Shown: piece by piece, positions 3,021 through 55,580 of the stretch | Layout: every line of letters starts with the position of its first letter | Numbering within the stretch: position 1 is the stretch's first letter | From: a virus | Strand: one strand, 5' to 3' | IMG/VR virus record: IMGVR_UViG_3300016476_000413 | Span: 1 to 55,580 of that record | DNA: 55,580 nt | The notes under the pieces: model-generated | Told to the model about the DNA's origin: nothing | Database searches by the model: none | Seen by the model: the letters and a program-made list of their open reading frames with translations, nothing else | Made by a program: the position numbers and the translations under genes

Positions 3021-3721
3021 CAGTCCTCCTTGAGGATGTCTTTGAACAGAGACTTGGCCGCTTTCTGTTCGGCCTCTTCGAGACGCTCGGCCCAGTTCAT
3101 GAGTTGCCTCGCGTCCTCCATCTCATCCTTGATACCGGCGTGCCTTGCCGCCTTGGCGATGATCTTCGCGTTGATGGTGGAGTTGGCGTGACCCATAGCG
3201 TCAGCCGCCTCACGAGGCAGGATGCCGGACTTCACCGCAATCTCGGCCAGCACCAGAATGAGGTCGGTCTGTTTGCGGCAGAGCAGCGCCACCTCCACAG
3301 CGTCGGCGTAGGTCTGGCCGTGCGCCGCCTTGATCGTGTTCATGATCTCGATGGCGGACCCGAAGGCTTCCTCGATCTTGTCCTTCGGCTTGCCTGCCTC
3401 GGCTTGCTCACGGTGCAGGTCGAGCGTGATCTGCACTCGGTCGACCGCAGTCCTGTTGGTGCCGCCGATGTGCCACTCGGTGATCTGTTCGGTCGGCGTG
3501 CCCTCTTCGCCGCAGTAGTTCTTGCCGTCCTTCCAGTTGTAGATCGTGGCGAGGGTGCCGTCCTCAAACTTGATGCGCCACTCGGCGTCCACCTTGTAGC
3601 CGTCGCCCTCCTGCGGCTTGCCGAACAGACTGGTCAGCTCCTTGTACGTGGCCTTGGTCTCGCCTTGCAGCCATGTGCATTGAAATTCCAAGTCGGCGTC
3701 GTTGTGGGTGATGAAGTTCAT
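3020..3721 (-). CDS. hypothetical protein (233 aa)
   Basis: ATG at 3721 with RBS CAAGGACTCACC lies just downstream of an intrinsic terminator, so the longer track ORF (to 3823) is rejected. Product begins MNFITHNDADLEFQCTWLQGE.... Confidence 0.65.
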   Translation of the reverse strand: MNFITHNDADLEFQCTWLQGETKATYKELTSLFGKPQEGDGYKVDAEWRIKFEDGTLATIYNWKDGKNYCGEEGTPTEQITEWHIGGTNRTAVDRVQITLDLHREQAEAGKPKDKIEEAFGSAIEIMNTIKAAHGQTYADAVEVALLCRKQTDLILVLAEIAVKSGILPREAADAMGHANSTINAKIIAKAARHAGIKDEMEDARQLMNWAERLEEAEQKAAKSLFKDILKED

Positions 3722-3740
3722 GGTGAGTCCTTGAGTTGCG

Positions 3741-3768
3741 GAAAAAGAAAGGGCCGCATCAGCGGCCC
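3741..3768 (-). terminator. rho-independent terminator (minus strand)
   Basis: The minus strand reads GGGCCGC-TGAT-GCGGCCC followed by TTTCTTTTTC. It lies between the stop at 3793 and the start at 3721. Confidence 0.7.
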
Positions 3769-3792
3769 GGGTGGTGGTCTGTTGGGTTGGTG

Positions 3793-4161
3793 TCATGCTG
3801 CCTCCGTGTCCAGCGGCAACCATGCAAGCTCGCCGTTGATGCTGGCTGGCATGACGAAGCGAACCTTGCGGGTGACCTCGTCCAGCGTGGTGTGAGGCGA
3901 AACAGATTCGCCCTCATCGTTGCAGCCCAGCACCAGACCCTTGCCAGCGAGCGGCTGGGGGTAGTCGGCATGGAGGAAGAACGCCTGTTCCTTGTCGCAG
4001 ATCAGGCCTTCGTCATCAACGAAGATGCCATCGCCCTGCCTGTTGATCCGGGCACAGTCGAAGGTCTCGCAGTCGATCAGATCGTAGATCTGTTGGTAGT
4101 TGCCCGAGTACTCGACGTCGGTGATGGTGCGGGTGAAGGGGTCGATCAGGATGGCTTTCAT
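3793..4161 (-). CDS. conserved phage protein (DUF3846-like, tentative)
   Basis: ATG at 4161 follows GGAGAATGAA. The MKAILIDPFTRTITDVEYSGNYQQIYDLI... N-terminus resembles DUF3846 family members as I recall them. Confidence 0.55.
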   Translation of the reverse strand: MKAILIDPFTRTITDVEYSGNYQQIYDLIDCETFDCARINRQGDGIFVDDEGLICDKEQAFFLHADYPQPLAGKGLVLGCNDEGESVSPHTTLDEVTRKVRFVMPASINGELAWLPLDTEAA

Positions 4162-4162
4162 T

Positions 4163-4420
4163 TCATTCTCCGGTGAACAGTGCGAACAGTTGAGGTGCAT
4201 ACATCATGGCGAACAGGACGCCACAGAAAGCCATGAACATGGCGGTGTCCTTGAGGATCAGTCGCCACTCTTGGGTGCGCCAGTCGGGGATGCGCTGGCC
4301 GGACCGAAGCAGCGCAGACTGCAGGCGCTCGGCTTCGGGTGTCATGTGATTCTGTTGCGGCGGGTCGTAGAACAGGCCGATCTTGACCTTGCCGGTGTCG
4401 TATGGTGTTGGCCTGTTCAT
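4163..4420 (-). CDS. hypothetical membrane-anchored protein (85 aa)
   Basis: C-terminal hydrophobic helix AMFMAFCGVLFAMMYAPQLFALF. Tightly packed with its neighbours. Confidence 0.6.
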   Translation of the reverse strand: MNRPTPYDTGKVKIGLFYDPPQQNHMTPEAERLQSALLRSGQRIPDWRTQEWRLILKDTAMFMAFCGVLFAMMYAPQLFALFTGE

Positions 4421-4650
4421 TTGGTCTCCTGCTTAGGTTTGCGTGGGATGTTGACTGCCTCGCGCACCCTGTCGATGGCCCGGGCAATGCCAGCGTCGTA
4501 GCCTCCGTGCTGATCCAACAGATCGAGGACAGCGCCGAAGGCGGCGGTCATGAGTGGCGAGGGCTTGTCTTGCTTGCCCTTGACCATCGTCTCGATCACC
4601 TTGGTCAGTCCGTCGATGGTGTCGAGTCGCAGGTCTTTCATATCGGTCAT
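4417..4650 (-). CDS. hypothetical protein (77 aa)
   Basis: ATG at 4650 is preceded by CAAAGGAGCAAGC. Product begins MTDMKDLRLDTIDGLTKVIE.... Confidence 0.6.
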   Translation of the reverse strand: MTDMKDLRLDTIDGLTKVIETMVKGKQDKPSPLMTAAFGAVLDLLDQHGGYDAGIARAIDRVREAVNIPRKPKQETK

Positions 4651-4814
4651 GCTTGCTCCTTTGCGGGTGTGGTGTTCGTCTGTTTGCTTGCCATCTCGGA
4701 GGCAATCGCTTCGGCAATCTCGCCCTTGAGTCGCTTCCATTCTTCGACGGTCATGGTCTTGCCGGTGACAAGGTCGCGGATCAGCATGGTGCTGCGGCGT
4801 TGGGTCTGTTGCAT
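4647..4814 (-). CDS. hypothetical protein (55 aa)
   Basis: ATG at 4814 is preceded by the conserved leader CGCAACTCACGGAAAGGAAC. Product begins MQQTQRRSTMLIRDLVTGKTMTVEEWKRLK.... Confidence 0.55.
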   Translation of the reverse strand: MQQTQRRSTMLIRDLVTGKTMTVEEWKRLKGEIAEAIASEMASKQTNTTPAKEQA

Positions 4815-4840
4815 GGTCTGTTCCTTTCCGTGAGTTGCGT

Positions 4841-4966
4841 TCAAAGCTCGGGCCAACCCGACACGATGCGGGTCACCAGTTCGTGGAATGTGATGCGGGT
4901 GAGATTGCCGAAGCCATCGTCCACCCACAGCGAGGGGCGTGTCCCTCGTGTGGTGTGCATGGTCAT
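4841..4966 (-). CDS. small hypothetical protein (41 aa, not in the ORF track)
   Basis: Hand translation gives MTMHTTRGTRPSLWVDDGFGNLTRITFHELVTRIVSGWPEL. The ATG lies 1 nt after the upstream stop and the ORF fills an otherwise empty gap. Confidence 0.4.
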   Translation of the reverse strand: MTMHTTRGTRPSLWVDDGFGNLTRITFHELVTRIVSGWPEL

Positions 4967-4967
4967 G

Positions 4968-5369
4968 TCACCACCATGAGTCGTAGAAGACAGCCTTGCC
5001 TTCGGCAATCGCGGCCCTTGCGTCTTTGATGAACTTGGTCAACGACTCCAAGTCGTACTCGTGCAGCTTGTCGTCGCCAAAGAAGAACCCTTTCGTCGGG
5101 GACAGTCGCTTTTCCTGCATGTCTGACTCAAGGTTGTAAAGGTCGTCTGTTGTGAGTCGCACCGTGGCGCAGTTGAATGCCTCGTCGGTCCCACCCTTCT
5201 CGCGGTAGAGCGCCTCCATCCAGCCATGCAGGTGATTGAAATTGCGCCAGTAGGCAATCTCGGTCTGTTCGCAAGTGGCATTGCCGTCTTTGTCGTGGCG
5301 GACGAAGTCCACCTGTGTGTCGCCTGCAGCCTCGGCAGACACGGTGAACGCATACATATCGAGTCCCAT
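4968..5369 (-). CDS. conserved hypothetical phage protein (133 aa)
   Basis: MGLDMYAFTVSAEAAGDTQVDFVRHDKDGN...YWRNFNHLHGWMEALY.... RBS GAAAGGAACAGAC. Confidence 0.65.
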   Translation of the reverse strand: MGLDMYAFTVSAEAAGDTQVDFVRHDKDGNATCEQTEIAYWRNFNHLHGWMEALYREKGGTDEAFNCATVRLTTDDLYNLESDMQEKRLSPTKGFFFGDDKLHEYDLESLTKFIKDARAAIAEGKAVFYDSWW

Positions 5370-5666: not shown

Positions 5667-6551
5667 TCACGCTGCCTCCAGTTCCGGGGTCTCGATCTTC
5701 GCCATGACTTCGTCAATCCAAGCCTCGGCGGACTCTTTGCTGTTGACCTTGCCCTGAATGAAGGCGTTGGACAGACCCAGCATTGCGGCGTATTGGCCGA
5801 TCATTGCGGCCTTTGGCCGACCCAGCGAAGAGCAGTACCGCTTGCCTGCCAGATCGCAGGCCGTGATGATCCCGGCGAAGCCGCGAGTCCTGAACCACCC
5901 CGGCATGGCAGTCAGCGCTGCCAGTTGCGACAGATCGAGCGGCGAATCTGTTGCCTTGATTTCGACAAACTGGCAGTTGCTGACCGTGTTGTCTTCGCTG
6001 CACTGTTCGGTGTTGACCGAGCCATAGATGCCCACTCCGTAACCTGCAGCGGTGAGTGCATCGGCCAGCTTGAGTGCAGCGGCACCACGCCAGTACAGTT
6101 CCGATGCCGTGACCCCGGCGCTATCACTCAGATTGCAAATCAGAGTGACGGTCCGGAAACCACCGGCCCGGGACTGACGTCGAGTCCGAGTCCAAGCCCG
6201 GGACAGATCGCCACGGTAGACCGCTTGCATGTCCAGTTCGTCGCCCTGATCGGATCGGACACGGCGGCGGCGAATGCTGACCGGGTTGATTTCGCGAGTT
6301 GCAAGCTGTTCCAGCTTGCGGACACCCTCGGGCCAGCCCTTGGTCAACCGTTGGTTGAGTTCGTCAACAGACGCCCCGAGCCAATCATCATTCCGCTGAT
6401 CGCGGAACCGGTCGCCTGTTGCGGACTTCTCGGCCCACTCTTTGTTGGCCGGCAGCTTAAGAGTCGCGGCGATGCGCTCCGGCTCGGTGACGCTATCCCA
6501 GAGGATAGCGACACGGTGCTTGCCGCCCTCGGATTCGATGACGTGGTGCAT
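5667..6551 (-). CDS. partner of the AAA+ ATPase; possible degenerate vWA (CobT-like) domain protein
   Basis: ATG at 6551 with RBS GGAGGTCTGAC, 1 nt after the ATPase stop. 294 aa. The segment VTLICNLSDSAGV resembles a MIDAS DxSxS strand with Asn replacing Asp. The upstream 250 aa of track ORF 5667..7304 overlap the ATPase gene in another frame and are rejected. Confidence 0.45.
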   Translation of the reverse strand: MHHVIESEGGKHRVAILWDSVTEPERIAATLKLPANKEWAEKSATGDRFRDQRNDDWLGASVDELNQRLTKGWPEGVRKLEQLATREINPVSIRRRRVRSDQGDELDMQAVYRGDLSRAWTRTRRQSRAGGFRTVTLICNLSDSAGVTASELYWRGAAALKLADALTAAGYGVGIYGSVNTEQCSEDNTVSNCQFVEIKATDSPLDLSQLAALTAMPGWFRTRGFAGIITACDLAGKRYCSSLGRPKAAMIGQYAAMLGLSNAFIQGKVNSKESAEAWIDEVMAKIETPELEAA

Positions 6552-6552
6552 G

Positions 6553-7671
6553 TCAGACCTCCACCTTGGTTTTCTCGTCGGCTTTCCAGCCGGTGAAGTA
6601 GGTCGCCTTGATCTGTTCAAGGGACCGGCCAGCCTTGACCAACTTCGTTGCGTCAAGAAGGAACCGTGTCGACAGGACACGGGACAGACGGGCTTCGCTG
6701 ATCCGTTTACGGATCGACCAGCCCCATGCCAAGACCTCGGGGTCAACGGCAGACCGTTCGAATTTCGTGTCGTAGTCCAGAAGGACTGTCCCGGCACGGA
6801 ACCGGTCCAGCGTCGACTCATCGAGTCGTTCACGACCGGCGTACACCATGTTGGAACCGGTGCCGAAAGTGTTGGCAGCGGCGATACAGACGAAGTCTGG
6901 GTGACGTTCGACCTTGGTCTTGTTCTTCCTCTGAGGGAGGAAGAACGAGCCGTTGGCCAGCGCTTGGTTGATGAACAACAGAGTGTTCGGGTCAGCGGCG
7001 TCGACTTCGTCGAACAGGAAGACCCCGCCCTGTTCGTACATGGTGACGAAGTCACTGGGGACGTATTCGAAAGCCCCACCGTCACCGGGCAGCATCCAGC
7101 CCTGAAGGGCTGACTCCGACATTCCTGCAGTGCAGGAGATTGCGGCGAAGGGACGACCGAGCGCCTCGGCCACTTGGTGAGCCAAGTGGGTTTTGCCGCA
7201 ACCGGCAGGACCGACCAACAGAATGTTGAGGCCGCACTGGGCTGACACCAGAATGTCCTGAAACTCAGGACGAACGTGACCAGATGGTTTCCATTCGGAA
7301 CCATCAGGGCGGGTCACTTCGATCTTGACGACCGGGGACCGCTCCAGAGCCTTGTTGACTTCGTCAACGACGATCTGTCGGACCGAGTTGGCATCAACCT
7401 TGATGCCAAGCATGTCCCGCAGGGCACCGAGAACAGCGGCAGGGTCACCAGAGGTGACGGCAGGGGCAGGAGTCGCCGGGGTTGCAGGAACCGGGGCCGG
7501 AACAGCCTGAAGGGCTGAGTGGATCTGTTCGCTGTCGTACTGCTGAAGCAGTCGGTCGACGCATTCGGTTTTCTTGGCCCGTTCGTGGTCGAAGCCAACG
7601 GCTCCGCCGTTGAGGTGCTTGAACAGATCGAGAATCGTTGCCTTCGGCAAGGCGAGAAGTTGGTCACGCAT
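6553..7671 (-). CDS. AAA+ ATPase, AAA_5 / CobS-MoxR-like
   Basis: 372 aa from the ATG at 7671 (RBS GAAAGGAACCGAATC). Walker A LLVGPAGCGKTH, Walker B VFLFDEVD, and a downstream RERLDESTLDRF arginine-finger-type region. Confidence 0.85.
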   Translation of the reverse strand: MRDQLLALPKATILDLFKHLNGGAVGFDHERAKKTECVDRLLQQYDSEQIHSALQAVPAPVPATPATPAPAVTSGDPAAVLGALRDMLGIKVDANSVRQIVVDEVNKALERSPVVKIEVTRPDGSEWKPSGHVRPEFQDILVSAQCGLNILLVGPAGCGKTHLAHQVAEALGRPFAAISCTAGMSESALQGWMLPGDGGAFEYVPSDFVTMYEQGGVFLFDEVDAADPNTLLFINQALANGSFFLPQRKNKTKVERHPDFVCIAAANTFGTGSNMVYAGRERLDESTLDRFRAGTVLLDYDTKFERSAVDPEVLAWGWSIRKRISEARLSRVLSTRFLLDATKLVKAGRSLEQIKATYFTGWKADEKTKVEV

Positions 7672-7728
7672 GATTCGGTTCCTTTCGAAGAAAGCGTGGT
7701 TGGGGAAAGAGGACAACAACGTCCAGCA

Positions 7729-7747
7729 AAGCCCTCTTCGAGGGCTT
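7729..7747 (-). terminator. stem-loop (possible attenuator or terminator) between the first small gene and the ATPase gene
   Basis: AAGCCCTC-GAA-GAGGGCTT on the minus strand, followed by a partly U-rich tract. The same CCCTCTTCGAGGG core recurs at 8292-8304. Confidence 0.3.
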
Positions 7748-7759
7748 CACTTGAAGTTG

Positions 7760-7915
7760 TCAGGCGGTGACGTTGCGGTTGACGCCGATGTATCGACCCT
7801 GCCAAGACCAAAGGTCTTGAACACTGTTGAAGATCGGTCCGACGAGGATTTCGTCATTTCCAGAGGAAATGCAGGTCTGCCAGCCACCGACGACTGATTT
7901 GCAAGTGATTTGCAT
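7760..7915 (-). CDS. small hypothetical protein (51 aa), first gene of the leftward operon
   Basis: ATG at 7915 is preceded by CGCAACTCACGGAAAGGAACCCGTC. Product is MQITCKSVVGGWQTCISSGNDEILVGPIFNSVQDLWSWQGRYIGVNRNVTA. Confidence 0.55.
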   Translation of the reverse strand: MQITCKSVVGGWQTCISSGNDEILVGPIFNSVQDLWSWQGRYIGVNRNVTA

Positions 7916-8726
7916 GACGGGTTCCTTTCCGTGAGTTGCGAAACTGGACGAACGTCCAGCACAGGGCGCGGCGACGATGCGGCACGCCCTGCACTTGAAG
8001 CTCGAAGAGCTTGGGAAGGGCCGGAATCGAATGACCCCGACCGTGATGAACATCCCGTAGGGATGAATTCGAGAAACGGGGGAAGCTGTCCCCTCGCCAC
8101 AGACTGTGTCTGTGTCCTCTGGCCGAACAGACCTTGGTCTGTTGAGCGACCCTTCGGTTAAGGCCTGAAGCCAAAGCCAGCTTTGCTGGTGTCTCACGAC
8201 ACGTTCGCTGACTCCTCTGGAGTCCGACGCTACTCCCGCCGTTGGGGTCGAACCGTTCGGTTCAGTGCGTCACTGAGGCCGTTGCTGATCCCCCTCTTCG
8301 AGGGGCTTCGCCTATCGGGCTGTCAGTGCTTTCAGCACCTACTGATCGGGAAGCGATGACCGGGGTCACCGTCGACGTTTTCCATTGGACAGGAACCTTG
8401 TCGCAGTGTCAAGTTTCCTTGTTTGTCCCGTAGGGACAGATCGGGCCGAGTCGGTCCTTGTCGTGCGCTGGGGACGGCTTCGCCGGACACCCCTGACACC
8501 AGCATCACCAGCTCGTGCTCAGGAAGGGATCGAAGATCCCCGATAGGCAGGCAAGGGGCTTCGCTGGCGAGGTTTCCGCGAGCGTTCAATCACGCTGAAA
8601 CCCGCATGAAGCCTAGCGATGAGGGAAAGGGTCGGCCCGGAAACCCCTGACACCAGACGGCCCGAGGCCTGCTTCCCTACAAGGGAACGGAATAGACCAG
8701 AAAGGCACCTTCAGCTTGACGACCAG

Positions 8727-8743
8727 AATGACGTAAGTCATTG
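8727..8743. repeat. Copy 1 of the 17-nt palindromic element AATGACGTAAGTCATTG
   Basis: An exact second copy lies at 8928-8944. Arms are AATGAC/GTCATT with spacer GTAA. Confidence 0.8.
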
Positions 8744-8927
8744 CAGGCAAAGGAAAACGATGCCCAATGAAATTGGATCTCAAGGCAAAACACGGGCAAT
8801 CCGACGAAAAAACGCCGATTTACCCCTATCGGGGTATCGAATCCGCCAACAGATCACGGCAACAGACCGCCATGTCCCACCCCTTACGGGGTGAATCCGG
8901 CAGGGCTTGGTCACAGTTGGGTCACAC

Positions 8928-8944
8928 AATGACGTAAGTCATTG
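8928..8944. repeat. Copy 2 of the 17-nt palindromic element AATGACGTAAGTCATTG
   Basis: Exact repeat of 8727-8743, 201 bp away. Preceded by the direct repeat GGTCACA-N4-GGTCACA. Confidence 0.8.
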
Positions 8945-9005
8945 ATCTGTAAGGCGTCGCACCTGATTGCATGTCAGGCGAGGCCGAAGGCCTGACGCGC
9001 ATGGC

Positions 9006-9028
9006 GGGGGTAGGGGCGGGGGCGTGGG
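9006..9028 (+). other. G-run cluster (G5-TA-G4-C-G5-CGT-G3); G-quadruplex-type motif and candidate cos/pac neighbourhood
   Basis: Read directly. It is followed by the CCCCCGGGGG palindrome (9045-9054) and a 50-nt polypyrimidine tract (9061-9113), about 0.5 kb upstream of terS. Confidence 0.35.
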
Positions 9029-9149
9029 CTGGCCAGCGCGTGTACCCCCGGGGGCCTGAGCCTCTACCTATCTCCCCTATTCACACGCTTGTCCCTCCCC
9101 TCTTCTCCTCTCTGATCCGCTTCTGAAATCAGAGCTGATTCCAGCTCGC

Positions 9150-9190
9150 AACCATTAACCATTAACCAGAAGAGTAAAGAGTAAGGAATA
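9150..9190. repeat. AT-rich tandem repeats (AACCATT x2; AGAGTAA x2) sharing a 13-mer with 48935-48947
   Basis: AACCATTAACCATTAACCAGAAGAGTAAAGAGTAAGGAATA. The 13-mer AACCATTAACCAT is also present inside the DUF1376-like gene. Confidence 0.7.
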
Positions 9191-9546
9191 CGCCACTCGC
9201 TTCGCTCGTTTCAGCCGCTTCGCGCCTGACGGCGGCGTGGCATGACCCCGGGTGGGGTGGTGGACCAAGACGGTGACCCCCGGGGGCTATCAAGGAATCC
9301 TGCCGAATTCTGTATTTCGCGAAAGACCCCTTGTTTTTTCGCGGATCACACAGGTACAGTCCGGCGCAGGATGGAGAAGTCATCTCCAGCGGCAGGTGAG
9401 CAACAGCCGCAGTCGGGGGCCTCTCGGTGTCTCCGGGCTGACCTGACCGCTTGGCCCACGTCACGGGCCTCATTTGTGTCTGACGCTCCGGAAAGACGGA
9501 GTTCAAAAATTTTTCGGTCCCGCTTCGCGGGAGGTCTTGGGAACTT

Positions 9547-9858
9547 ATGCCAACTCGCAAACCTCGGGAAACTGCTTCTGCTCGCCGCGAGGCGCTGCGG
9601 GAGGAGCACGCCCAAGTGGTGCGCGAGAAGATCCAGACGACCAAGCTCGTGGAAGCGCTGGAGTCTTTCGCCCTCGGCAAGACCGAAGGCAAGAAGATGA
9701 CCCCGGCCCGTCTCAAGGCCATTGAGATGCTGCTCGACAAGACGTTGCCCAACCTCGCGTCGGTCAAGCACGAGGTGGACGCCAAGCAGGTTGTGTTCAT
9801 GATCGACACCGCACCACCTGATGGCAACGCAAACAATCCAGTACCGTCCTCCGGGTAA
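9547..9858 (+). CDS. terS: putative terminase small subunit
   Basis: 103 aa, immediately upstream of and overlapping terL. The basic N-terminus and the ARLKAIEMLLDKTLPNL segment resemble small-terminase families. The call rests mainly on position. Confidence 0.55.
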   Translation: MPTRKPRETASARREALREEHAQVVREKIQTTKLVEALESFALGKTEGKKMTPARLKAIEMLLDKTLPNLASVKHEVDAKQVVFMIDTAPPDGNANNPVPSSG

Positions 9859-11266
9859 GGTCGCCGCCGCCTTCCACCAGTCCACCGCCTTCGTTCGCGG
9901 AATCCTTGGACCGGTCGGCTCCGGCAAGTCCTCTACCTGCTGCATGGAGATCGTCAAGCACGCGCTCAAGCAGACCCCGCACAACGGCTGGCGCAAGGCC
10001 CGCTGGGCGGTCATCCGGAACACCTACCCGGAACTGAAGTCGACGACCATCAAGACGTGGTCGCAGTGGATGAACGAGGAGCTCGCCCCGATCAAGTGGG
10101 ACGCTCCGATCACCTGCACCCTGAAGATCAAGGACTGCGGCGACGGCAACGGCCTCGACCTCGAGGTGATCTTCATTGCGTTGGATAAGGCCACAGAGAC
10201 CGGCAAGTTGCGCTCCCTCGAGCTGACCGGTGGCTGGATCAACGAAGCCTCCGAGGTGCCGAAGGAAGTGTTCGACATGCTGACCCAGCGTGTTGGCCGC
10301 TTCCCACCCAAGACTCACGGTGGTGGCCCGGTTCACCCTTGCGTGATCCTCGACACCAACCCGCCAGACGACGATCACTGGTACTACAAGATCGCCGAGG
10401 AAGACCGGCCCGAGGGCTGGGACTTCTTCAATCAGCCCGGGGGGCTGCTCCGCAAGACAGACGGCGAGAACGTCTGGTACGAGCCGAACCCCGAGGCCGA
10501 GAACATCTTCAACCTGCCGGGTGGCTACGAGTACTACCTGCGGCAGGTGGCCGGGAAGTCCGACGACTGGATCAAGGTCTTCCTGATGGGCCAGTACGGC
10601 ACGACCGCCGACGGCAAACCGGTTTATCCCGAGTACAGCGACAAGATCCATGTGGCCGACGAAGAGCTCGAGCCCAACAGATTCCTGCCCGTGTACCTCG
10701 GCTGGGACTTCGGTCTCACCCCGAGCTGCATCGTGGGTCAGATGTCGCCCAAGGGACAACTGCTCATCCTCGACGAGTTCATCGCCGAGGACATGGGCAT
10801 TCGCCAGTTTGCCTCCGAGGTGGTCAAGCCGGCGCTGATGAACAAGTACGCAGGCTGCAAGTTCGAATCTGTTGGCGACCCTGCCGGCATGAACCGCGCA
10901 CAGACCGACGAGCGCACCTGCTTCCAAGAACTCCTCGAGGTCGGCATCGCTTCCGAGCCCGCCGACACCAACGACTTCATCCCCCGCCGTGAATCGGTCG
11001 CGTTCTTCCTGAACAGACTGGCCGGCGGGGAGCCCGGGTTCCTGTTGTCACCGAACTGCCGAATGCTCCGCAAGGGCTTCATCGGCGGTTACCGCTACGA
11101 GCGGCTGAAGGTGGCAGGGGAGCGCTATCGAGATCGCCCCGTGAAGGATCGGTTCTCTCACCCTCACGATGCGCTGCAGTACTTGGCGCTGAAGGTGCGG
11201 GACGGGAATCGCCGCAACGTGCGGGCACGGAGTGTAGGAAAGTCGTCCGCCAAGGCGTGGACGTGA
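9821..11266 (+). CDS. terL: terminase large subunit
   Basis: 481 aa. N-terminal Walker A GPVGSGKSS, ATPase-coupling and nuclease-type acidic motifs, and the canonical position upstream of the portal gene. Confidence 0.85.
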   Translation: MATQTIQYRPPGKVAAAFHQSTAFVRGILGPVGSGKSSTCCMEIVKHALKQTPHNGWRKARWAVIRNTYPELKSTTIKTWSQWMNEELAPIKWDAPITCTLKIKDCGDGNGLDLEVIFIALDKATETGKLRSLELTGGWINEASEVPKEVFDMLTQRVGRFPPKTHGGGPVHPCVILDTNPPDDDHWYYKIAEEDRPEGWDFFNQPGGLLRKTDGENVWYEPNPEAENIFNLPGGYEYYLRQVAGKSDDWIKVFLMGQYGTTADGKPVYPEYSDKIHVADEELEPNRFLPVYLGWDFGLTPSCIVGQMSPKGQLLILDEFIAEDMGIRQFASEVVKPALMNKYAGCKFESVGDPAGMNRAQTDERTCFQELLEVGIASEPADTNDFIPRRESVAFFLNRLAGGEPGFLLSPNCRMLRKGFIGGYRYERLKVAGERYRDRPVKDRFSHPHDALQYLALKVRDGNRRNVRARSVGKSSAKAWT

Positions 11267-11286: not shown

Positions 11287-13299
11287 ATGACACAGGTTTA
11301 CCAAGCACAGCCGCCCGTCAGTGCTGACGTCAGCGCCGTGCAGCCGGAAGGCGTGGACAACTCCGACCTCATTGCGTCCGGCATTTCTGGCCACATCACG
11401 AATTGCTGGAACCGAGCGAAGTTCGCCAAGCAACGGATCACTGAGCGCCTGCTGCAGTGCGAGCGCCAGCGCCGTGGCGAATACGACCCCGACAAGGCCC
11501 AAGAGATCGCACAGACTGGCGGCTCCGACATCTACATGATGATCACGGACGTCAAGTGCAATGCGGCCAAGTCGTGGATTCAGGATGTGATGTTCCAAGA
11601 CGAGAGAGGGTTCGACCTTGTCCCAGCTCAGGAACCTGCAATACCGCCTGAAGTCAAGATGTCGATTGTGGACTTTGTCCGCCAAGAAGCTGCTGAGTAC
11701 GTGGCTCAAGGTGGTGCAATCCATCCGGAAGCGTTTCGCACGCGACTCGAAGAAGTCCACGACACCGTCCTGATTCGCGTTCGCGAAGAGGCCAAGGACT
11801 GCGCCGAGCGCATGGCCAAGGTCATTCAGGACCAGATGGCCGAGGGTGGCTACAAGCGTCAGATGGAGGACTTCATCGACGACTTCGTGACCTACCCCAC
11901 CGCCATCCTCAAGGGGCCGACGGTCCGCAAGAAGCCCAAGCTGCAGTGGGGGCCGAACTTCACCCCGGTGGTCCTCAACGACTACTTCCGCGAGATCGAG
12001 CGCGTCAGCCCCTACGACATTTACCCCAGCCCCAACAGCTCCGGCGTGGATGACGGCTACCTGATCCAGCGCCACCGCCTCACCGCTCGCGTGCTCGAGT
12101 CGATGAAGGATGTGCCCGGGTACAGCAACGCCGACATCGACCAAGCCCTGATCCGCTACGGTCAGGCCGGCTACCGGTACTGGGAGTACGGCGACCAGCA
12201 GCGCGACAACCTCGAGGGCAAGTACCTCTCGCGCCTGTATCAGGACGGTCTGATCGAGGCCATCGAGTTCTGGGGTCCGGTGATGGGCCAGATGCTCCTC
12301 GACTGGGGCATGAAGGGTGTCGAGCCTACCAAGGTCTACGAGGTCAATGCGTGGCAGATCGGCTCGTTCGTCATCAAGTGCGTCATCAACCCTGACCCAC
12401 TGGGCCGTCGCCCCTACGAGATCGCATCGTGGCGCGTCATCCCCGGCGCGTTCTGGGGCACCGCCCTGCCGGAGATCATGCGCGACGTGCAGATGATGTG
12501 CAACGCCGCTGCCCGGGCGCTGGCCAACAACATGGGCATCGCCTCCGGCCCACAGGTCGACATCTCGGTGGACAGACTGGCTGACGGCGAAGAGCTCACC
12601 CAGATGTACCCGTGGAAGATCTGGCAGACGACCAGCGACCGCACGGGCGGCAACCAGCCGGCCATCCGCTTCTTCATGCCCGACATGAAGGCCGCTGAAC
12701 TGATGGGCGTGTACGGCAACTTCGCCAAGCAGGCCGACGAAGTCACCGGCATCCCGAACTACATCTACGGCAGCGGCTCCGCAGCCGGCGCAGGCCGCAC
12801 CGCCTCGGGTCTGTCCATGCTGATGGACAACGCCGCCAAGGGCATCAAGGCCGCGATCCTGACCATCGACCACGTGGTAACAATGGTGGTGAGCCGCTTC
12901 TACACCCACAACATGATGTACAACCCAGACCCGTACATCAAAGGCGACTTCAAGATCGTGGCGCGTGGCGCGATGGGCCTCATCCACAAGGAAGCCATCA
13001 ACGTCCGCCGCAACGAGTTCATGGTCGCCACGGCCAACCCGGTCGACCTGCAGATCATGGGTCCGGACGGTCGCGCCTATCTGTTGCGCGAGCAGGCCAA
13101 GGGTCTGCAGATGGACACCGACAAGCTGGTGCCTACCGTCGACCGCATGAAGTTCAAGGCCGAACAGGTGCAGCAGGCCATCGCCGCCCAGCAGGGCATG
13201 AACCAAGGCTCGCTGCCCGCGCCGGCACAGACTGGTGGCGACGGCGCTCCGCCGCCCCAACAGATGAACACCGTCCAACCCCAGATGGAGATCCAGTGA
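11287..13299 (+). CDS. portal protein
   Basis: 670 aa, directly downstream of terL, with size and composition typical of podovirus portals. Confidence 0.7.
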   Translation: MTQVYQAQPPVSADVSAVQPEGVDNSDLIASGISGHITNCWNRAKFAKQRITERLLQCERQRRGEYDPDKAQEIAQTGGSDIYMMITDVKCNAAKSWIQDVMFQDERGFDLVPAQEPAIPPEVKMSIVDFVRQEAAEYVAQGGAIHPEAFRTRLEEVHDTVLIRVREEAKDCAERMAKVIQDQMAEGGYKRQMEDFIDDFVTYPTAILKGPTVRKKPKLQWGPNFTPVVLNDYFREIERVSPYDIYPSPNSSGVDDGYLIQRHRLTARVLESMKDVPGYSNADIDQALIRYGQAGYRYWEYGDQQRDNLEGKYLSRLYQDGLIEAIEFWGPVMGQMLLDWGMKGVEPTKVYEVNAWQIGSFVIKCVINPDPLGRRPYEIASWRVIPGAFWGTALPEIMRDVQMMCNAAARALANNMGIASGPQVDISVDRLADGEELTQMYPWKIWQTTSDRTGGNQPAIRFFMPDMKAAELMGVYGNFAKQADEVTGIPNYIYGSGSAAGAGRTASGLSMLMDNAAKGIKAAILTIDHVVTMVVSRFYTHNMMYNPDPYIKGDFKIVARGAMGLIHKEAINVRRNEFMVATANPVDLQIMGPDGRAYLLREQAKGLQMDTDKLVPTVDRMKFKAEQVQQAIAAQQGMNQGSLPAPAQTGGDGAPPPQQMNTVQPQMEIQ

Positions 13300-18761: not shown

Positions 18762-21719
18762 ATGTCGATCCCAACCGTACAAGTCACCTGTGTCGCCTAC
18801 GACCAGAACGGCAACCCCGTTGCTGGCGGCACCTTCAGGTTCAAGCTCGACCGCACCGAGATCTACAACGGCTTCGTGGTGCCGGAGGTCGTCGAGGGCA
18901 CGGCCAACGCGCAGGGTGTGTGCGTGGTCAACCTGTGGCCGAACGCGCTGGGCACCAACAGCTCGCAGTACCGGGTACAGGCCTACAACCCGGACACCGG
19001 GGCCAAGTACCTTGACGCCTTTGCTGTCATCCCGAACAGCAACTGCTACCTGCAAGACGTCATCCAGATCCCGCCGTACCCGCCGATTGACCAGTCCCAG
19101 CAGGCCATGATCGCCGCGCAGGCCGCTGCCAGCGCTGCTGCTGCCGAGGCTGACCTTGCTGCAGCCGACGCTGATGCTGCCGCCCTGAGCGCAGCCGCTG
19201 CCGCCGCCTCGGCCACTGCCGCCGCCAACAGCGCTACGGCTGCGGCCAACAGCGCCACCAGCGCCAGCGGAAGTGCGTCGACGGCCACCACCGCTGCACA
19301 GTCGGCCCAGACTTCGGCGGGGACTGCCACGACCAAGGCCTCCGAGGCCAGCACGTCTGCCACCAATGCAGCCGCCAGCGCCAGCTCGGCCAGCACGTCC
19401 ACAACGACGGCGACCAATCAGGCCACCAGCGCAACCAATTCCGCCACCGCTGCGGCCAACAGCGCTACCAGCGCTGCCAACTCGGCCAGCACTGCTACGA
19501 CCAAAGCCAGCGAGGCTGCTGCCAGCGCCGCCGCTGCCTCGAGCTCTGCAACGTCTGCATCGGCGTCTGCCGCTACGGCCACCACCAAGGCAACCGAGGC
19601 CCAGACGAGCGCCAGCCAAGCCGCAACCTCTGCCAGCAATGCGGCATCGAGCGCCAGCCAAGCAGCCACCAGCGCTACGGCTGCTGCAAGCTCGGCATCG
19701 ACGGCCAGCTCCGCTGCAACAACAGCAACTGACGCCGCCACGACTGCAACCGGCGCTGCCTCGACCGCCACCACGCAGGCCAATGCAGCCGCCGCCTCAG
19801 CCTCGAGTGCCGCCGCCAGTGCCGGTGCCGCCAACACCTCGGCCAACAACGCTTCGGGAAGCGCGGATGCCGCTGAGGCAGCGCAGATTGCCGCCGAGCA
19901 GGCTCGCGATCAGACGCTTGCTGCCTTCGACAACTTCGACGACCGCTACCTCGGCCCGAAATCAACCGACCCTACAACCGACAACGACGGCAACCCGCTG
20001 GTCTCCGGTGCGCTGTACTACAACACCAACCCGCTGAATTCTGGCGGCGGCATGAAGGTGTACGACGGCACGGCATGGCTGGCCGCTTACGCCAGTCTGT
20101 CCGGCGCTCTGTTGTCGGCGAACAATCTGTCCGACCTGGCCAGCGCATCCGCTGCCCGTGTCAACCTCGGACTGGGCAACGTCGAGAACAAGAGTGCGGC
20201 GACGATTCTCTCCGAGCTCACGTCGGCCAACGTCACCACCGCACTCGGCTTCACGCCCTACGACGCAGCCAACCCTGCCGGCTATGTGTCGCAGGCCGGT
20301 GCTCGTGCCGCCATCTCTGTTGCGGGCAGTCTGGCCTATGACCCGGTCACTGGCGTCATTACCTACAACCAGCCGACGAACGTCTCGGCGTTCAGCAATG
20401 ACGCAGGCTACCTGACGGGCATCAACAGCTCGCAAGTGACGACTGCGCTGGGGTACACCCCGTACAACGCGACTAACCCCAGCGGTTACGTCGATCAGGC
20501 CGGCGCACGGTCCGCAATCAGCGCTTCCGGCTCTCTGAGCTATGACTCGGCCACTGGTGTCATCAGCTACACCCAGCCGGCCAACGTCTCGGCATTCACC
20601 AACGATGCCGGCTACCTGACCGCCATCACCGGCACACAGGTCATCACCGCGCTGGGGTACACGCCCTATGACGCAACGAACCCGTCGGGCTACATCACCA
20701 GCTCTGCGCTGTCTCCGTATCTGTTGAGCGCCACTGCGGCCAGCACGTACCAGACGCAATCTGGCATGTCGGCCTATCTGACGACCAGCGCAGCATCCTC
20801 GACCTACCTCGCGCTGTCTGGTGGCACGCTGACTGGCGGGCTTGCCTTCACCGGCACTGGCAACCGCATCACTGGTGACTTCAGCAATGCGACTGTTGTT
20901 AATCGGGTGGCATTTCAAGGCGTAAGCGGGGCTACTACGGATGTTGGTTCAATTCCGCCCACTGGCGCTGCAGCAGCAAGTTTTATTGCATTTAACTCGA
21001 CAGATTCTAGTAATTCTGCATTTGCTCAACTGAGAATAGACAGCGGTGACGCTAGATTTGCTTCAAGTAAAACAGGCACCGGCACCTACCTGCCCATGAC
21101 CTTCTACACCGGAGGCAGTGAGCGCGTCAGGATTGATACCAGCGGTAACGTAGGTATTGGGACGAGTTCTCCGGGTGTGAAGCTAGACGTCTATAGCAGC
21201 AGCACAACCAGCACGGTTATTCGCGCTAGAAACGACACCACAAGCGTATATCTAGACGCAAACAACGGTTACGCATACCTAAACACATTCACAGCCCATC
21301 CCCTACTGTTCGGAACCAACAACACAGAACGCGCCCGTATCTCCGCAGCAGGTGGCTTCTCTGTAGGCACCACCGCAGACCCCGGCGCTGGCGCAATCTA
21401 CGCCACCGGCAACATCACCGCCTACTACTCGGACGACCGCCTGAAGACGCGCCTCGGCTACATCGAGAACGCGCTCGACAAGGTCGAACAGCTCTCCGGC
21501 TTCTACTACGAGGCCAACGAGACGGCTCAGGCGCTCGGATACAAGGTCAAGCGCGAAGTCGGTGTGTCGGCCCAGCAAGTGCAGGCCGTGCTGCCGGAGA
21601 TCGTGTCGCCGGCCCCCATCGACCAGCAGTACCTCACGGTCGACTACGAGCGTCTGGTGCCGCTGCTGATCGAGGCCATCAAAGAGCTCCGCGCCGAACT
21701 GCGTGCAATGAAACATTGA
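18762..21719 (+). CDS. tail fibre with C-terminal S74-type intramolecular chaperone
   Basis: 985 aa. About 280 aa are Ala/Ser/Thr repeats, followed by the DDRYLGPKS..GALYYN fibre motif and about 60-aa tandem repeats (VTTALGYTPY.ATNPSGY...NVSAF.NDAGYLT). The C-terminus DDRLKT....LSGFYYE...GVSAQQVQAVLPE matches the peptidase_S74 chaperone pattern. Confidence 0.85.
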   Translation: MSIPTVQVTCVAYDQNGNPVAGGTFRFKLDRTEIYNGFVVPEVVEGTANAQGVCVVNLWPNALGTNSSQYRVQAYNPDTGAKYLDAFAVIPNSNCYLQDVIQIPPYPPIDQSQQAMIAAQAAASAAAAEADLAAADADAAALSAAAAAASATAAANSATAAANSATSASGSASTATTAAQSAQTSAGTATTKASEASTSATNAAASASSASTSTTTATNQATSATNSATAAANSATSAANSASTATTKASEAAASAAAASSSATSASASAATATTKATEAQTSASQAATSASNAASSASQAATSATAAASSASTASSAATTATDAATTATGAASTATTQANAAAASASSAAASAGAANTSANNASGSADAAEAAQIAAEQARDQTLAAFDNFDDRYLGPKSTDPTTDNDGNPLVSGALYYNTNPLNSGGGMKVYDGTAWLAAYASLSGALLSANNLSDLASASAARVNLGLGNVENKSAATILSELTSANVTTALGFTPYDAANPAGYVSQAGARAAISVAGSLAYDPVTGVITYNQPTNVSAFSNDAGYLTGINSSQVTTALGYTPYNATNPSGYVDQAGARSAISASGSLSYDSATGVISYTQPANVSAFTNDAGYLTAITGTQVITALGYTPYDATNPSGYITSSALSPYLLSATAASTYQTQSGMSAYLTTSAASSTYLALSGGTLTGGLAFTGTGNRITGDFSNATVVNRVAFQGVSGATTDVGSIPPTGAAAASFIAFNSTDSSNSAFAQLRIDSGDARFASSKTGTGTYLPMTFYTGGSERVRIDTSGNVGIGTSSPGVKLDVYSSSTTSTVIRARNDTTSVYLDANNGYAYLNTFTAHPLLFGTNNTERARISAAGGFSVGTTADPGAGAIYATGNITAYYSDDRLKTRLGYIENALDKVEQLSGFYYEANETAQALGYKVKREVGVSAQQVQAVLPEIVSPAPIDQQYLTVDYERLVPLLIEAIKELRAELRAMKH

Positions 21720-48090: not shown

Positions 48091-48294
48091 TCAGCGTTTT
48101 CGGTAGGTGCGGTGCTCGGTCATCACGCCGATGACCCGAACAGATTCGTCGGACTGGATGGTTTCCCAGTCTTGGTTCTCTGGCACGAGCTCATACCCGG
48201 GGTGACGCTGGCGGTAGCGTCGAAACACAACTGCGGCACCCTGCAGTAGCGCGGCGACGTAGTCGCCCGGTTCAGGCAGCAGGGCGCTGGCCAA
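48091..48294 (-). pseudogene. orphan C-terminal half of an S24 (LexA/CI-type) peptidase domain; truncated repressor remnant or small derived protein
   Basis: GDYVAALLQGAAVVFRRYRQRHPGYELVPENQDWETIQSDESVRVIGVMTEHR aligns by eye with LexA ...[30 protein letters not shown].... The Ser motif and the HTH domain are absent, and Arg occupies the catalytic Lys position. Only a TTG start without an RBS is available. An RBS-equipped ATG (48316) lies one frame off. Confidence 0.45.
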
Positions 48295-48354
48295 GACTAA
48301 TGGCGTCCGTTGTCATATCGCCTCGTCGAAATTGGGGCTTACCCCAACGATCTC

Positions 48355-48383
48355 ATACTAAAGACTACTTGCTCCACAGTCAA
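48355..48383 (-). promoter_or_regulatory. sigma70-like leftward promoter
   Basis: The minus strand reads TTGACT (48383-48378), a 17-nt spacer, then TAGTAT (48360-48355). Downstream lie a GGGGTAAGCCCC hairpin and GAGGCGAT-ATG (48316). Confidence 0.55.
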
Positions 48384-48412
48384 CTGTAGTTTACCGGCAA
48401 CATCCGACTGGA

Positions 48413-48430
48413 CAACAAGAATTCTTGTTG
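48413..48430. promoter_or_regulatory. 18-bp perfect palindrome CAACAAGAATTCTTGTTG (operator candidate)
   Basis: Read directly. It lies between the divergent leftward and rightward operons and shares the ACAAG/CTTGT half-site core with the 48028-48048 inverted repeat. Confidence 0.55.
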
Positions 48431-48575
48431 CCAGACCGAACAGAAACGCCGACACTTGAGTCCGTCGGATAGGTTTCCGGGTAGCTCCCGGGGCTGAACC
48501 GGGCGGAGTTCGTTCCTTTCGCCGCCCTTTCCGACCCCCTCGCGGGGTTTGTTCAGAAGGGCTCGAGGAACGCAG

Positions 48576-55466: not shown

Positions 55467-55580
55467 GCGTTCTTCTCCCGCAGCTTGGCTTCGACTTTCC
55501 GCATCGCCTCGATTTTTCCAAACAGGGTGCTGCGGCAGCCAAGTTCAATTTCTTCAAACTCCTCATCCGTCAGCCCCACC
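55439..55580 (-). CDS. C-terminal part of the junction-spanning ORF (see 1..173)
   Basis: In frame with 173..1 once the 21-nt overlap is collapsed. The segment ...EEFEEIELGCRSTLFGKIEAMRKVEAKLREKNAWQPSEPTD ends at TGA 55441..55439. Confidence 0.5.
   Translation of the reverse strand, partial: VGLTDEEFEEIELGCRSTLFGKIEAMRKVEAKLREKNAWQPSEPTD
55560..55580. repeat. Terminal overlap (identical to 1-21)
   Basis: See the first feature. Confidence 0.9.

Follow-up and report, generated by a model that had tools for sequence, protein, structure and literature searches.

Organization of the locus

The analyzed window (55,580 nt, positions 1 to 55,580 of IMG/VR record IMGVR_UViG_3300016476_000413) represents a circular assembly of a temperate and lambdoid phage genome; the assemblies of the relatives L036 and L100 are circular as well. 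A block at positions 7916-9546 separates two sets of genes with opposite orientation. Three genes on the minus strand are located to its left: the DUF7192 gene (5667-6551), the gene for an AAA_5 (MoxR/CobS-like) ATPase (6553-7671) and a 51-aa ORF (7760-7915), which has a strong RBS and is unique to this genome. On its right side, a small-terminase-like ORF (9547-9858) and the large terminase (9821-11266) are encoded on the plus strand.

The block had been described as protein-free in the initial annotation, and the comparison with relatives confirmed this description. None of its small ORFs matched a Pfam or PHROG entry, and the block matches the relatives in several frames simultaneously. A 145-aa ORF (7760-8197, minus strand) was ruled out by indels of 1, 2, 8 and 14 nt together with equal mismatches at the three codon positions, and the same kind of evidence excluded ORFs of 44 and 56 aa at 8760 and 8767. 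Because of these frame-breaking indels and equal mismatch rates, the block is considered to be non-coding. The protein-free gap is 1.3-1.9 kb long and, outside of one conserved island, mostly poorly conserved; BLASTN of the block against GenBank phages gave no match.

Several elements could be recognized within the block. The stretch from a promoter-like element to the first leftward-operon gene (7916-8383, minus strand) is a non-coding leader densely filled with hairpins; in the relatives L025 and L031, several of these hairpins carry compensatory changes. The conserved non-coding island (8150-8445) has 76-84% nucleotide identity in relatives and contains covarying hairpins, for example CCCCTCttcGAGGGG / CCCTTCtacGAAGGG and GTCCCgtaGGGAC / ATTCCgtaGGAAT / AACCCgtaGGGTT. 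The leftward promoter-like element (8384-8412, minus strand) was read by eye from the alignments and consists of a -35 sequence TTGACA (8407-8412), a 17-nt spacer and a -10-like TCCAAT (8384-8389); a scan for consensus sigma-70 promoters called none, 8384-8412 included. The element sits inside a conserved CTTGnC-N5-GTCAAG inverted repeat and is kept even in hairpin-poor relatives, and 9 hairpins are found in the 590 bp upstream of it. Two direct repeats CCGGA[C/A]ACCCCTGACACCAG (8483-8502 and 8637-8656, plus strand), which are also retained in relatives including hairpin-poor ones, are probably protein-binding sites. Two identical 17-bp palindromes AATGACGTAAGTCATTG (8727-8743 and 8927-8943) look like operators and are not conserved in the relative L007. 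Finally, a G-run tract (9003-9029) is followed by an invariant 33-bp motif CTGAGCCTCTACCTATCTCCCCTATTCACACGC (9056-9088; both plus strand). This segment (9003-9088), which is located 460-540 bp upstream of the small terminase gene, is a candidate cos/pac or other packaging or regulatory site. Contig starts were rejected as evidence for a genome terminus, as they are scattered, the positions in question are spanned by other contigs, and the assemblies of the window, L036 and L100 are circular.

A dense array of perfect hairpins

A hairpin-dense zone was delimited at approximately 6250-9000. This 2.8-kb array contains 64 perfectly paired hairpins (stem of 5-10 bp, loop of 2-5 nt), approximately one per 37 bp, that span about 39% of the bases in its core. 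All 17 inverted repeats listed in the initial annotation were recovered in place, several of them being 1-2 bp longer than written. The excess noticed there in the block is likewise supported, as 24 perfect hairpins are present at 7916-9000 versus 4.6±1.9 (maximum 10) in 300 dinucleotide shuffles (stem of at least 5 bp, loop of 2-5 nt). With stems of at least 6 bp, 17 hairpins compare to 1.2±1.1 in the shuffles. At 9001-9546, enrichment is not clear (6 hairpins, 2.4±1.6 expected).

The protein-free block is, however, not the unit of the phenomenon. The array runs from non-coding DNA through the 51-aa gene (4 hairpins) and the AAA ATPase gene (28 perfect hairpins versus 6.7±2.3 upon synonymous shuffling) into the start of the DUF7192 gene, which is hairpin-rich only in its 5' 300 nt (5 hairpins at 6252-6551 versus 1.3±1.1 expected) and forms the left edge of the zone. 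Hairpin density amounts to 16, 27 and 22 per kb at 6-7, 7-8 and 8-9 kb, respectively, versus about 5 per kb elsewhere, and it is similar in the coding DNA of the AAA gene and in non-coding DNA (about 25 and 22 per kb). Codons, and in some cases the amino acid, are chosen such that the palindromes are preserved. On the right, the array is bounded by the invariant motif upstream of the terminase genes; density decays leftwards from this motif and nothing comparable is found to its right. Both terminase ORFs show background density, and the hairpin counts of terminase, portal, capsid and integrase genes match the expected values.

The stem sequences are unrelated to each other, with 59 distinct outer 5-mers among the 64 hairpins and only the closing pair in common, which rules out that the array is a repeat family. 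A repeat search for dispersed palindromic elements (REP/BIME, MITE-like) gave only few families of 2-3 copies. DnaA-box matches were absent from the window and tandem repeats from the hairpin zone, and intrinsic terminators at 7600-9700 are not in excess (3 sites versus 2.6±1.5 expected). Even spacing was rejected as a sign of design: hard-core exclusion, estimated by hand for 15-nt hairpins with a mean spacing of 37 nt, predicts a CV of about 0.59, which covers most of the observed regularity (0.52).

Strict Watson-Crick pairing and loop chemistry

The initial annotation offered two readings of the hairpins, either as a GOLLD/ROOL-like RNA or structured leader or as a DNA-level array, and leaned towards the latter on the basis of the pure Watson-Crick stems. 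This argument is borne out by the hairpin counts. Perfect Watson-Crick hairpins occur at 19.6 per kb in the zone versus 5.1 per kb in the background, whereas hairpins with one internal G·T pair are not enriched on either strand (1.10 and 1.29 per kb for sense and antisense versus 1.26 and 1.28 per kb in the background). Hairpins with other single mismatches amount to 3.0 per kb in the zone and 4.2 per kb in the background. At hairpin columns of homologues without the hairpin, G·T is about as frequent as A·C (672 versus 748), as in the controls. Triloops make up 54% of the hairpins (30% in the background), the closing pair is C·G in 72%, and GNA and TNC loops together account for 54% of the triloops (8% in the background). 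GNA loops are distributed symmetrically between the strands (74 sense versus 76 on the other strand; 41 versus 48 in the non-coding gaps alone). As only strict Watson-Crick hairpins are enriched, the triloops are strand-symmetric, and the array passes through coding DNA and is also found upstream of the only promoter-like element, the structure is assigned to DNA and not to RNA.

Single-strand folding energy, calculated with DNA parameters, is below that of shuffles (z of -3.4 for the leader and -5.8 for an AAA segment). No Rfam family, GOLLD and ROOL among them, matched the whole window at the gathering score, and only two chance-level matches were obtained at 6000-9700 with E<=1. The tRNA/tmRNA scan found none. 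RNAalifold returned a covariation term of -0.05 for the conserved island and detected local hairpins only, with no supported long-range pairing. Together with the missing G·U pairs and the extension of the array into genes, these results lend no support to the first of the two readings.

Conservation and loss of the array among relatives

The same array is present in more than 30 related metagenomic contigs, in which the hairpins occur at homologous positions and carry compensatory changes; the array-bearing group consists of freshwater temperate phages. The 11 relatives that were gathered initially, from the viral contig set, have 15-28 hairpins per AAA gene versus 4-8 expected, and about 25 further metagenome contigs show enrichment with z of at least 4. 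The array measures 3-5.5 kb in relatives and, in their long loci, covers the gap, the AAA and DUF7192 genes and a further 1-3 kb.

The conservation extends to individual base pairs. In the hairpin pair TCGACgaaGTCGA / TCGATgaaATCGA, a Val-to-Ile change is paired with a synonymous change of an Asp codon, and further compensated pairs are TGACGGCtctGCCGTCA / TGACGGTtctACCGTCA and ACCTACtttGTAGGT / ACCTTCtttGAAGGT. Synonymous sites within stems are conserved among homologues with 60-80% protein identity. In closely related pairs, stems are less variable than the average site, and double changes that compensate each other occur far beyond expectation. At 1.9% divergence, L091 and L092 differ by 2 single stem changes (11 expected) and by 2 compensated doubles, where 0.1 doubles of any kind are expected (approximately 0.03 compensated by our own estimate). 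For L108 and L109, 19 single stem changes (45 expected) and 6 compensated doubles were counted, with 1.8 doubles of any kind expected (approximately 0.6 compensated, again our own estimate).

At least two relatives are devoid of the array. L089 and L100/L036 show background hairpin density, yet their branches fall within the hairpin-rich clade, and the genes, the promoter-like element and the repeats are all retained in them, together with a variant form of the motif. A dense zone is also absent from the nearest isolates (BPP-1-like BcepC6B, TerL about 41% identical), whose ends are unlike the motif. A general property of the AAA gene family was rejected, as the homologue of Acinetobacter phage AM24 has normal hairpin density and distant homologues also speak against it. 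Dense spots in L084 and L078 turned out to be ordinary repeated operator or origin-like palindromes and not the same phenomenon. A trans-acting or co-varying gene for the array was not found in the leftward-operon flanks examined.

Origin and possible role of the array

The array looks selected at the DNA level. The explanation that we favor, and regard on balance as probable, is that short perfect DNA palindromes able to extrude are kept by selection on DNA structure. Less firmly, we propose that they may have a conflict-type role at a genome end that would be exposed first. No description of such an array was found in the literature. If the arm is underwound by negative supercoiling, or unwound by a helicase, resection, replication or transcription, the palindromes would snap into pairs of mini-hairpins. 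This extrusion is modelled on the early promoter hairpins of phage N4 (5-7 bp stem, 3-nt loop), which have the same C(GNA)G chemistry. The arm would then act as folded DNA, and about 94 helical turns would be absorbed if all hairpins were extruded. Exposure of the end could take place after terminase cutting or at entry, and self-folding would hinder host enzymes moving inwards, such as RecBCD-type processing, guide or spacer capture and RecA/SSB loading.

A conflict-type benefit is favored because the array is anchored at a cos/pac-like site, fades away from it, is strand-symmetric and is patchy in close relatives; this is the weakest step of the proposal, and supercoiling buffering is the second candidate benefit. 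The strand symmetry would be expected for cruciforms, or if both strands were unwound, and not for a single resected 3' tail, and 5-bp stems are marginal for extrusion. The array would also be a liability, because hairpin DNA triggers Lamassu/DdmABC (PMC11707656) and attracts type III-A spacer uptake (PMC8860593). We suggest only tentatively, and with more doubt than confidence, that it represents an undescribed feature, a kilobase-scale 'hairpin cushion', in which dozens of extrudable mini-hairpins, placed by selection in both genes and spacers of the arm beside the likely packaging site, shield first-exposed DNA or clamp supercoiling and are gained and lost in an arms race. Such a cushion would guard against host end-processing and nucleic-acid-guided immunity.

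The main rival explanation is template-switch mutation, which we consider unlikely. The arm would often be single-stranded or stalled, short-range template switching would perfect quasi-palindromes, and the hairpins would be a functionless footprint of this process. Perfect arms, paired changes and persistence are equally predicted by such correction without any function. Correction of imperfect to perfect inverted repeats has been published for Proteobacteria (PMC5941160), as has hairpin maintenance by the same route (PMC8794818), and the phage encodes a RecE-like exonuclease, a Sak-type annealing protein and an SSB. The strand symmetry of the array, the enrichment of perfect inverted repeats but not of decaying ones and the paired changes at very low divergence, with 3-4 changes clustered in one hairpin, point in the same direction. 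Loop inversions do exist (TCC/GGA in L108/L109, and GAA/TTC), but at 3 of 115 they are not above chance. A mutational by-product is also difficult to reconcile with a constrained protein gene that is as dense in hairpins as non-coding DNA, with the conserved synonymous sites and slow evolution of the stems, and with loops that belong to the thermodynamically special C(GNA)G class instead of being arbitrary. Relatives within the clade have the same architecture and no array, and the correction of 5-6 bp stems would have to outpace point mutation.

The remaining alternatives place the hairpins in RNA or in promoters. Folding within the first 2 kb of the leftward transcript could block Rho, resist ribonucleases or prevent backtracking in a polymerase that pulls DNA in. 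This would agree with the location of the densest part (7000-8380) downstream of the conserved left-pointing promoter-like element, with the low folding energies of the leader and the AAA segment, and with the short spacing of the hairpins, whose longest gap of 98 nt leaves few long unstructured stretches. Such an RNA-level role nevertheless appears improbable: G·U-containing hairpins are not enriched on either strand, triloops prevail and not the tetraloops typical of stable RNA hairpins, and GNA loops are about as frequent as their complement, which is unexpected for a single transcribed strand. The array also reaches some 600 bp beyond the promoter-like element on its upstream side, as far as the packaging-like motif, and neither the covariation term of the island nor Rfam lends weight to it. 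N4-type hairpin promoters, or single-strand initiation signals for a virion-delivered polymerase or primase, are very improbable. In stem and loop size and in C(GNA)G chemistry, the hairpins correspond to what N4 early promoter hairpins require, and the phage encodes a single giant virion protein, a 2653-aa polyvalent protein that is probably ejected and of which large parts have no assigned function. However, Pfam, PHROGs and a PDB sequence search detected no RNA polymerase or primase in this protein and gave InPase, LPD38 and structural matches only. Furthermore, there are 64 sites versus three N4 promoters, no conserved bases past the closing pair and no orientation bias, and the genome, that of a temperate and lambdoid phage, has an ordinary promoter-like element at the array. 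The analogy to N4 promoters that had been drawn initially thus holds for hairpin geometry and loop chemistry only, as a shared promoter sequence, a strand orientation and a virion RNA polymerase signal were not detected. We give the least credence to a large ornate ncRNA (GOLLD/ROOL-like) or other structured RNA gene filling the block. The gap is long, conserved and protein-free and harbors a conserved 300-nt island, but it is mostly poorly conserved beyond this island, pairing is local, Rfam and tRNA/tmRNA matches are missing, and the neighboring genes are filled by the same hairpins. A large ncRNA, a set of N4-type promoters and a repeat family are all rejected as descriptions of the array.

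Comparison with known systems

The leading region of conjugative plasmids carries single-strand promoters and initiation signals on the DNA that enters first, next to early anti-defence genes. These signals are few, long and imperfect hairpins that act on transferred single strands, whereas the array consists of dozens of mini-hairpins in a double-stranded phage genome. The N4 early promoter hairpins resemble the array in their 5-7 bp stems, 3-nt loops, C·G closing pair and G..A loop ends and in lying on the genome arm that is presumed to be the first to act, and the C·G closing pair and G..A loop permit their extrusion from the duplex at physiological superhelicity (PMC4496689). The three N4 promoters share conserved bases and a single orientation and are served by a dedicated virion polymerase, in contrast to the array with about 64 unrelated sequences, which lie in either orientation, also within genes, and for which no polymerase was detected. 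In Proteobacteria, perfect short inverted repeats are over-represented and conserved, which was attributed to template-switch correction (PMC5941160; PMC8794818). Perfect arms, conservation beyond expectation and paired changes are shared with the array; the Proteobacterial effect is modest and genome-wide, whereas the array is a four- to five-fold local excess within 3-5 kb, with a specific loop chemistry and a patchy occurrence in close relatives. Mitochondrial genes of Nematomorpha contain perfect inverted repeats within functional coding genes (PMC6649704), so that both protein sequence and DNA or RNA structure are preserved, as in the array. Their arms reach up to 284 bp, whereas the array has very dense stems of 5-10 bp in a dsDNA phage and continues into non-coding DNA. 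The injection-stop region of phage T5 is a conserved non-coding segment of 1-1.7 kb on the first-entering arm that is rich in inverted repeats and palindromes (bioRxiv 10.1101/866236). It contains fixed, named direct and inverted repeats and DnaA boxes, none of them coding; the array, in contrast, has no DnaA boxes or tandem repeats, its stem sequences turn over and it includes genes.

Implications

If the array is selected, DNA secondary structure would be a trait that can evolve across a whole region of a double-stranded phage genome and that prevails over codon choice and even over amino acids. It would add a layer of constraint that is missed by gene-centered annotation. Hairpin-dense arms may also break assemblies and can mislead RNA-structure scans. 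The close relatives that have the same genes and no array are natural controls, which enable a direct test. Should the array be the footprint of template switching, it would mark where and how phage DNA is single-stranded and provide an unusually clean system for this mutational process. If its benefit is the protection of first-exposed DNA, it would represent a new, protein-free strategy of counter-defence.

Genome organization and likely host

The window ends are identical over 21 bp (1-21 and 55560-55580), so that the assembly is circular and represents a complete genome of approximately 55.56 kb rather than a fragment. The phage is temperate and podovirus-like, and encodes small and large terminase subunits (9547-11266), an SU10-type portal (11287-13299), capsid, tail fibres and an internal virion protein. 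It also has an integrase gene and, for replication and recombination, a module of lambdoid type (RecE-like exonuclease, Sak-type annealing protein, SSB, O-like initiator, DnaB-like helicase and RusA). A polyvalent virion protein of 2653 aa (35131-43092) contains an inorganic-pyrophosphatase domain, LPD38, a HEIAGH zincin-like motif and long PAPAPA linkers. Within the gene for the 985-aa tail fibre, about 200 bp are duplicated in tandem with 73% identity (20232-20683), and two HNH endonuclease paralogues of the same PHROG family lie on opposite strands (160-654, minus; 53631-54143, plus), one of them closing the leftward operon. The closest isolates are BPP-1-like and other podoviruses, with TerL identities of just 41-45%. 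One related contig is part of a Limnohabitans MAG, and a freshwater bacterium of the Comamonadaceae is thus the probable host.

Extent of the hairpin array

Perfect hairpins were defined by stems of at least 5 bp and loops of 2-5 nt, and expectations were obtained from dinucleotide shuffles. All 17 inverted repeats listed in the initial annotation were found in the window. Positions 7916-9000 contain 24 perfect hairpins (4.6±1.9 in shuffles), including 17 with stems of at least 6 bp (1.2±1.1). The hairpins had been assigned to one block (7916-9546), which holds inside 7916-9000, but densities of 16, 27 and 22 hairpins per kb at 6-7, 7-8 and 8-9 kb, versus roughly 5 per kb in the rest of the window, demonstrate that the array runs leftward into genuine minus-strand genes. 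These are a 51-aa ORF (7760-7915), an AAA_5/CobS-like ATPase gene (AAA gene, 6553-7671) with 28 hairpins versus 6.7±2.3 after synonymous-codon shuffling, and a DUF7192 gene (5667-6551), of which the array covers the first 300 nt. The region 6250-9000 harbors 64 hairpins with mutually unrelated stem sequences that cover approximately 39% of the core; terminase, portal, capsid and integrase genes have the expected counts. The array zone contained no tandem repeats, no DnaA boxes were found, and terminator-like sites in the array region did not exceed chance. A second, far smaller cluster of perfect hairpins (seven with stems of at least 6 bp in 1 kb) is located at 48100-48550, in the divergent stretch that separates the recombination genes from the O-like/DnaB replication genes; this is probably the immunity or origin region.

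The block had also been described as protein-free, and family searches and comparison with relatives bear this out. Its small ORFs yielded no family matches, it resembles relatives in several reading frames simultaneously, and its leader aligns with related contigs L025/L031 with indels of 1, 2, 8 and 14 nt and mismatches evenly spread over the three codon positions. ORFs at 8760 and 8767 were rejected as genes, being not preserved in the related contig L007.

Several other elements accompany the array. A G-run tract of G-quadruplex-capable GGCGGG repeats, followed by CCCCCGGGGG and a 33-bp motif invariant across relatives, occupies 9003-9088 and is a candidate cos/pac or late regulatory site; contig L009 begins with a long poly-G run exactly at this tract. 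Direct repeats CCGGA[C/A]ACCCCTGACACCAG (8483-8502 and 8637-8656, 154 bp apart) show conservation among relatives that extends to the hairpin-poor L036 genome, and a packaging or regulatory protein probably binds to them. Two identical copies of a 17-bp perfect palindrome, AATGACGTAAGTCATTG (8727-8743 and 8927-8943, 200 bp apart), lie on either side of a small ORF that is not conserved and has a good RBS. These palindromes look like operators and are not conserved in L007, the closest relative for that stretch.

Distribution and conservation among relatives

Searching viral and metagenome contigs with TerL and AAA recovered many relatives that share a module of DUF7192, AAA, a 1.3-1.9 kb gap, TerS and TerL. 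In all 11 relatives of the initial collection, drawn from the viral contig set, the AAA gene has 15-28 hairpins versus 4-8 expected, and approximately 25 more metagenome contigs reach z of at least 4, one homologue being just 43% identical. In long loci, the zone comprises the gap, AAA, DUF7192 and 1-3 kb further, and structural genes remain at background. It starts at the invariant motif (9056-9088 in the window), with the G-run tract ahead of it, and its hairpin density falls off leftwards over 2.75-4.5 kb; no comparable zone was found to the right. Contigs L032 (approximately 3300-5300) and L027 carry an almost hairpin-free insertion of about 2 kb between the conserved island (8150-8445 in the window) and the terminase genes, so that DNA newly acquired by the zone is not rich in hairpins. 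Two distant relatives (L084, 4680-4870; L078, 4000-4240) have long palindromes repeated upstream of their terminase genes (GAGACTAGTCTctgAGACTAGTCTC, twice); these were rejected as the same array and represent an ordinary operator/origin-like repeat set.

Hairpins frequently occupy the same codon-alignment columns across relatives and differ by paired changes, as in TCGACgaaGTCGA / TCGATgaaATCGA, TGACGGCtctGCCGTCA / TGACGGTtctACCGTCA and GATTCGTaaACGAATC / GATCCGTaaACGGATC. Even amino acids co-vary (Y-F-V, ACCTACtttGTAGGT, versus F-F-E, ACCTTCtttGAAGGT), and in the non-coding island 8150-8445 the variants GTCCCgtaGGGAC, ATTCCgtaGGAAT and AACCCgtaGGGTT likewise all retain the loop. Between closely related contigs, substitutions are rarer in stems than at the average site, and compensated doubles far exceed expectation. 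At 1.9% divergence (L091/L092), 2 single stem changes were found versus 11 expected, with 2 compensated doubles versus 0.1 doubles of any kind (about 0.03 compensated by our estimate). At 7.4% (L108/L109), there were 19 single changes versus 45 and 6 compensated doubles versus 1.8 of any kind (about 0.6 compensated, similarly estimated). Many hairpins are lineage-specific, and density is maintained as much as individual hairpin sites.

Normal hairpin density was found in the homologous AAA gene of Acinetobacter phage AM24, and background density in L089 (the Limnohabitans MAG contig; AAA 70% identical, same synteny) and in the 53.4-kb circular genome L036/L100. The latter two retain the promoter-like element, and L036/L100 additionally has the direct repeats and a variant form of the motif. 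Hairpin-poor relatives encode identical peptides with non-palindromic codons (THLAHQVA, CCACTTGGCTCACCAAGTGG in the window versus CCACCTCGCTCACCAAGTGG in L089). Both lineages branch inside the hairpin-rich clade in a rough neighbour-joining tree, which implies that the array was lost or replaced at least twice. No gene tracking its presence or absence was found in the flanking sequences examined. In the AAA gene, contigs L097 and L101 (97% identical) differ by a cluster of six synonymous substitutions that destroys the most conserved hairpin, CACTTGGctcaCCAAGTG (zone-alignment column 1092); this patch looks like recombination from a hairpin-poor relative.

DNA as the probable structured molecule

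Three results point to DNA rather than RNA as the structured molecule: perfect-only pairing, loop class and strand symmetry. Across 21 kb of homologous zones, perfect hairpins reach 19.6 per kb versus 5.1 in background. Hairpins with one internal G·T are at background on both strands (1.10 and 1.29 versus 1.26 and 1.28 per kb), and those with other single mismatches are, if anything, depleted, which agrees with the nearly pure Watson-Crick stems noted initially. At hairpin columns of hairpin-lacking homologues, G·T equals A·C, as in controls. The proposed GNA-triloop class of stable DNA mini-hairpins is matched by the loop statistics, as triloops make up 54% of hairpins in array zones, 5'-C...G-3' closes 72% of them, and 54% are GNA or TNC versus 8% in background. 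A review of N4 names exactly this closing pair and these loop ends as requirements for 5-7 bp hairpins to extrude under supercoiling (PMC4496689). GNA loops are strand-symmetric (74 versus 76 overall; 41 versus 48 in non-coding gaps alone), and about nine hairpins lie upstream of the sole promoter-like element (8384-8412, minus strand), which is kept in all relatives. Strand symmetry and wobble-free pairing are not what a transcript from one strand predicts. A large non-coding RNA or structured leader had been considered, and neither an Rfam scan nor an RNAalifold covariation check gave any result; the alternative of a DNA-level array accords with all three observations.

Origin and possible role of the array

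These data support a selected DNA-level hairpin array. The main rival explanation, that template-switch correction left a footprint without function (PMC5941160, PMC8794818), accounts for both perfect arms and paired changes. However, it is not easily reconciled with a hairpin density as high in a constrained gene as in spacers, with stems whose synonymous sites are conserved, with so specific a loop chemistry or with hairpin-free relatives within the clade, nor with loop inversions that do not exceed chance. Among known systems, the suggested analogy to N4 promoters stands for geometry and loop chemistry but not for the other defining features of N4 hairpins. The T5 injection-stop region is similar only as a palindrome-rich region on an early-acting arm, and the 'coding palindromes' of Nematomorpha mitochondria as structure overlaid on coding sequence. 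The literature searched contained no account of a mini-hairpin array on a kilobase scale that passes through phage genes. Given these partial likenesses, we rate the array as related to known functional DNA hairpins and perfect inverted-repeat enrichment, with a considerable probability that it forms a class by itself.

On physical grounds, underwinding or unwinding of the arm should make the palindromes extrude as pairs of mini-hairpins. Extrusion of all hairpins would absorb approximately 94 turns, compared to a linking deficit of about 317 across the entire genome at sigma -0.06. Hairpin DNA is also known to trigger host systems or to be targeted by them (PMC11707656, PMC8860593), and the array thus carries costs. 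As for its benefit, a possible conflict-type role at whichever DNA end is exposed first is suggested by its anchoring at the packaging-like motif, decay with distance, strand symmetry and uneven presence in close relatives, and supercoil buffering is the second candidate.
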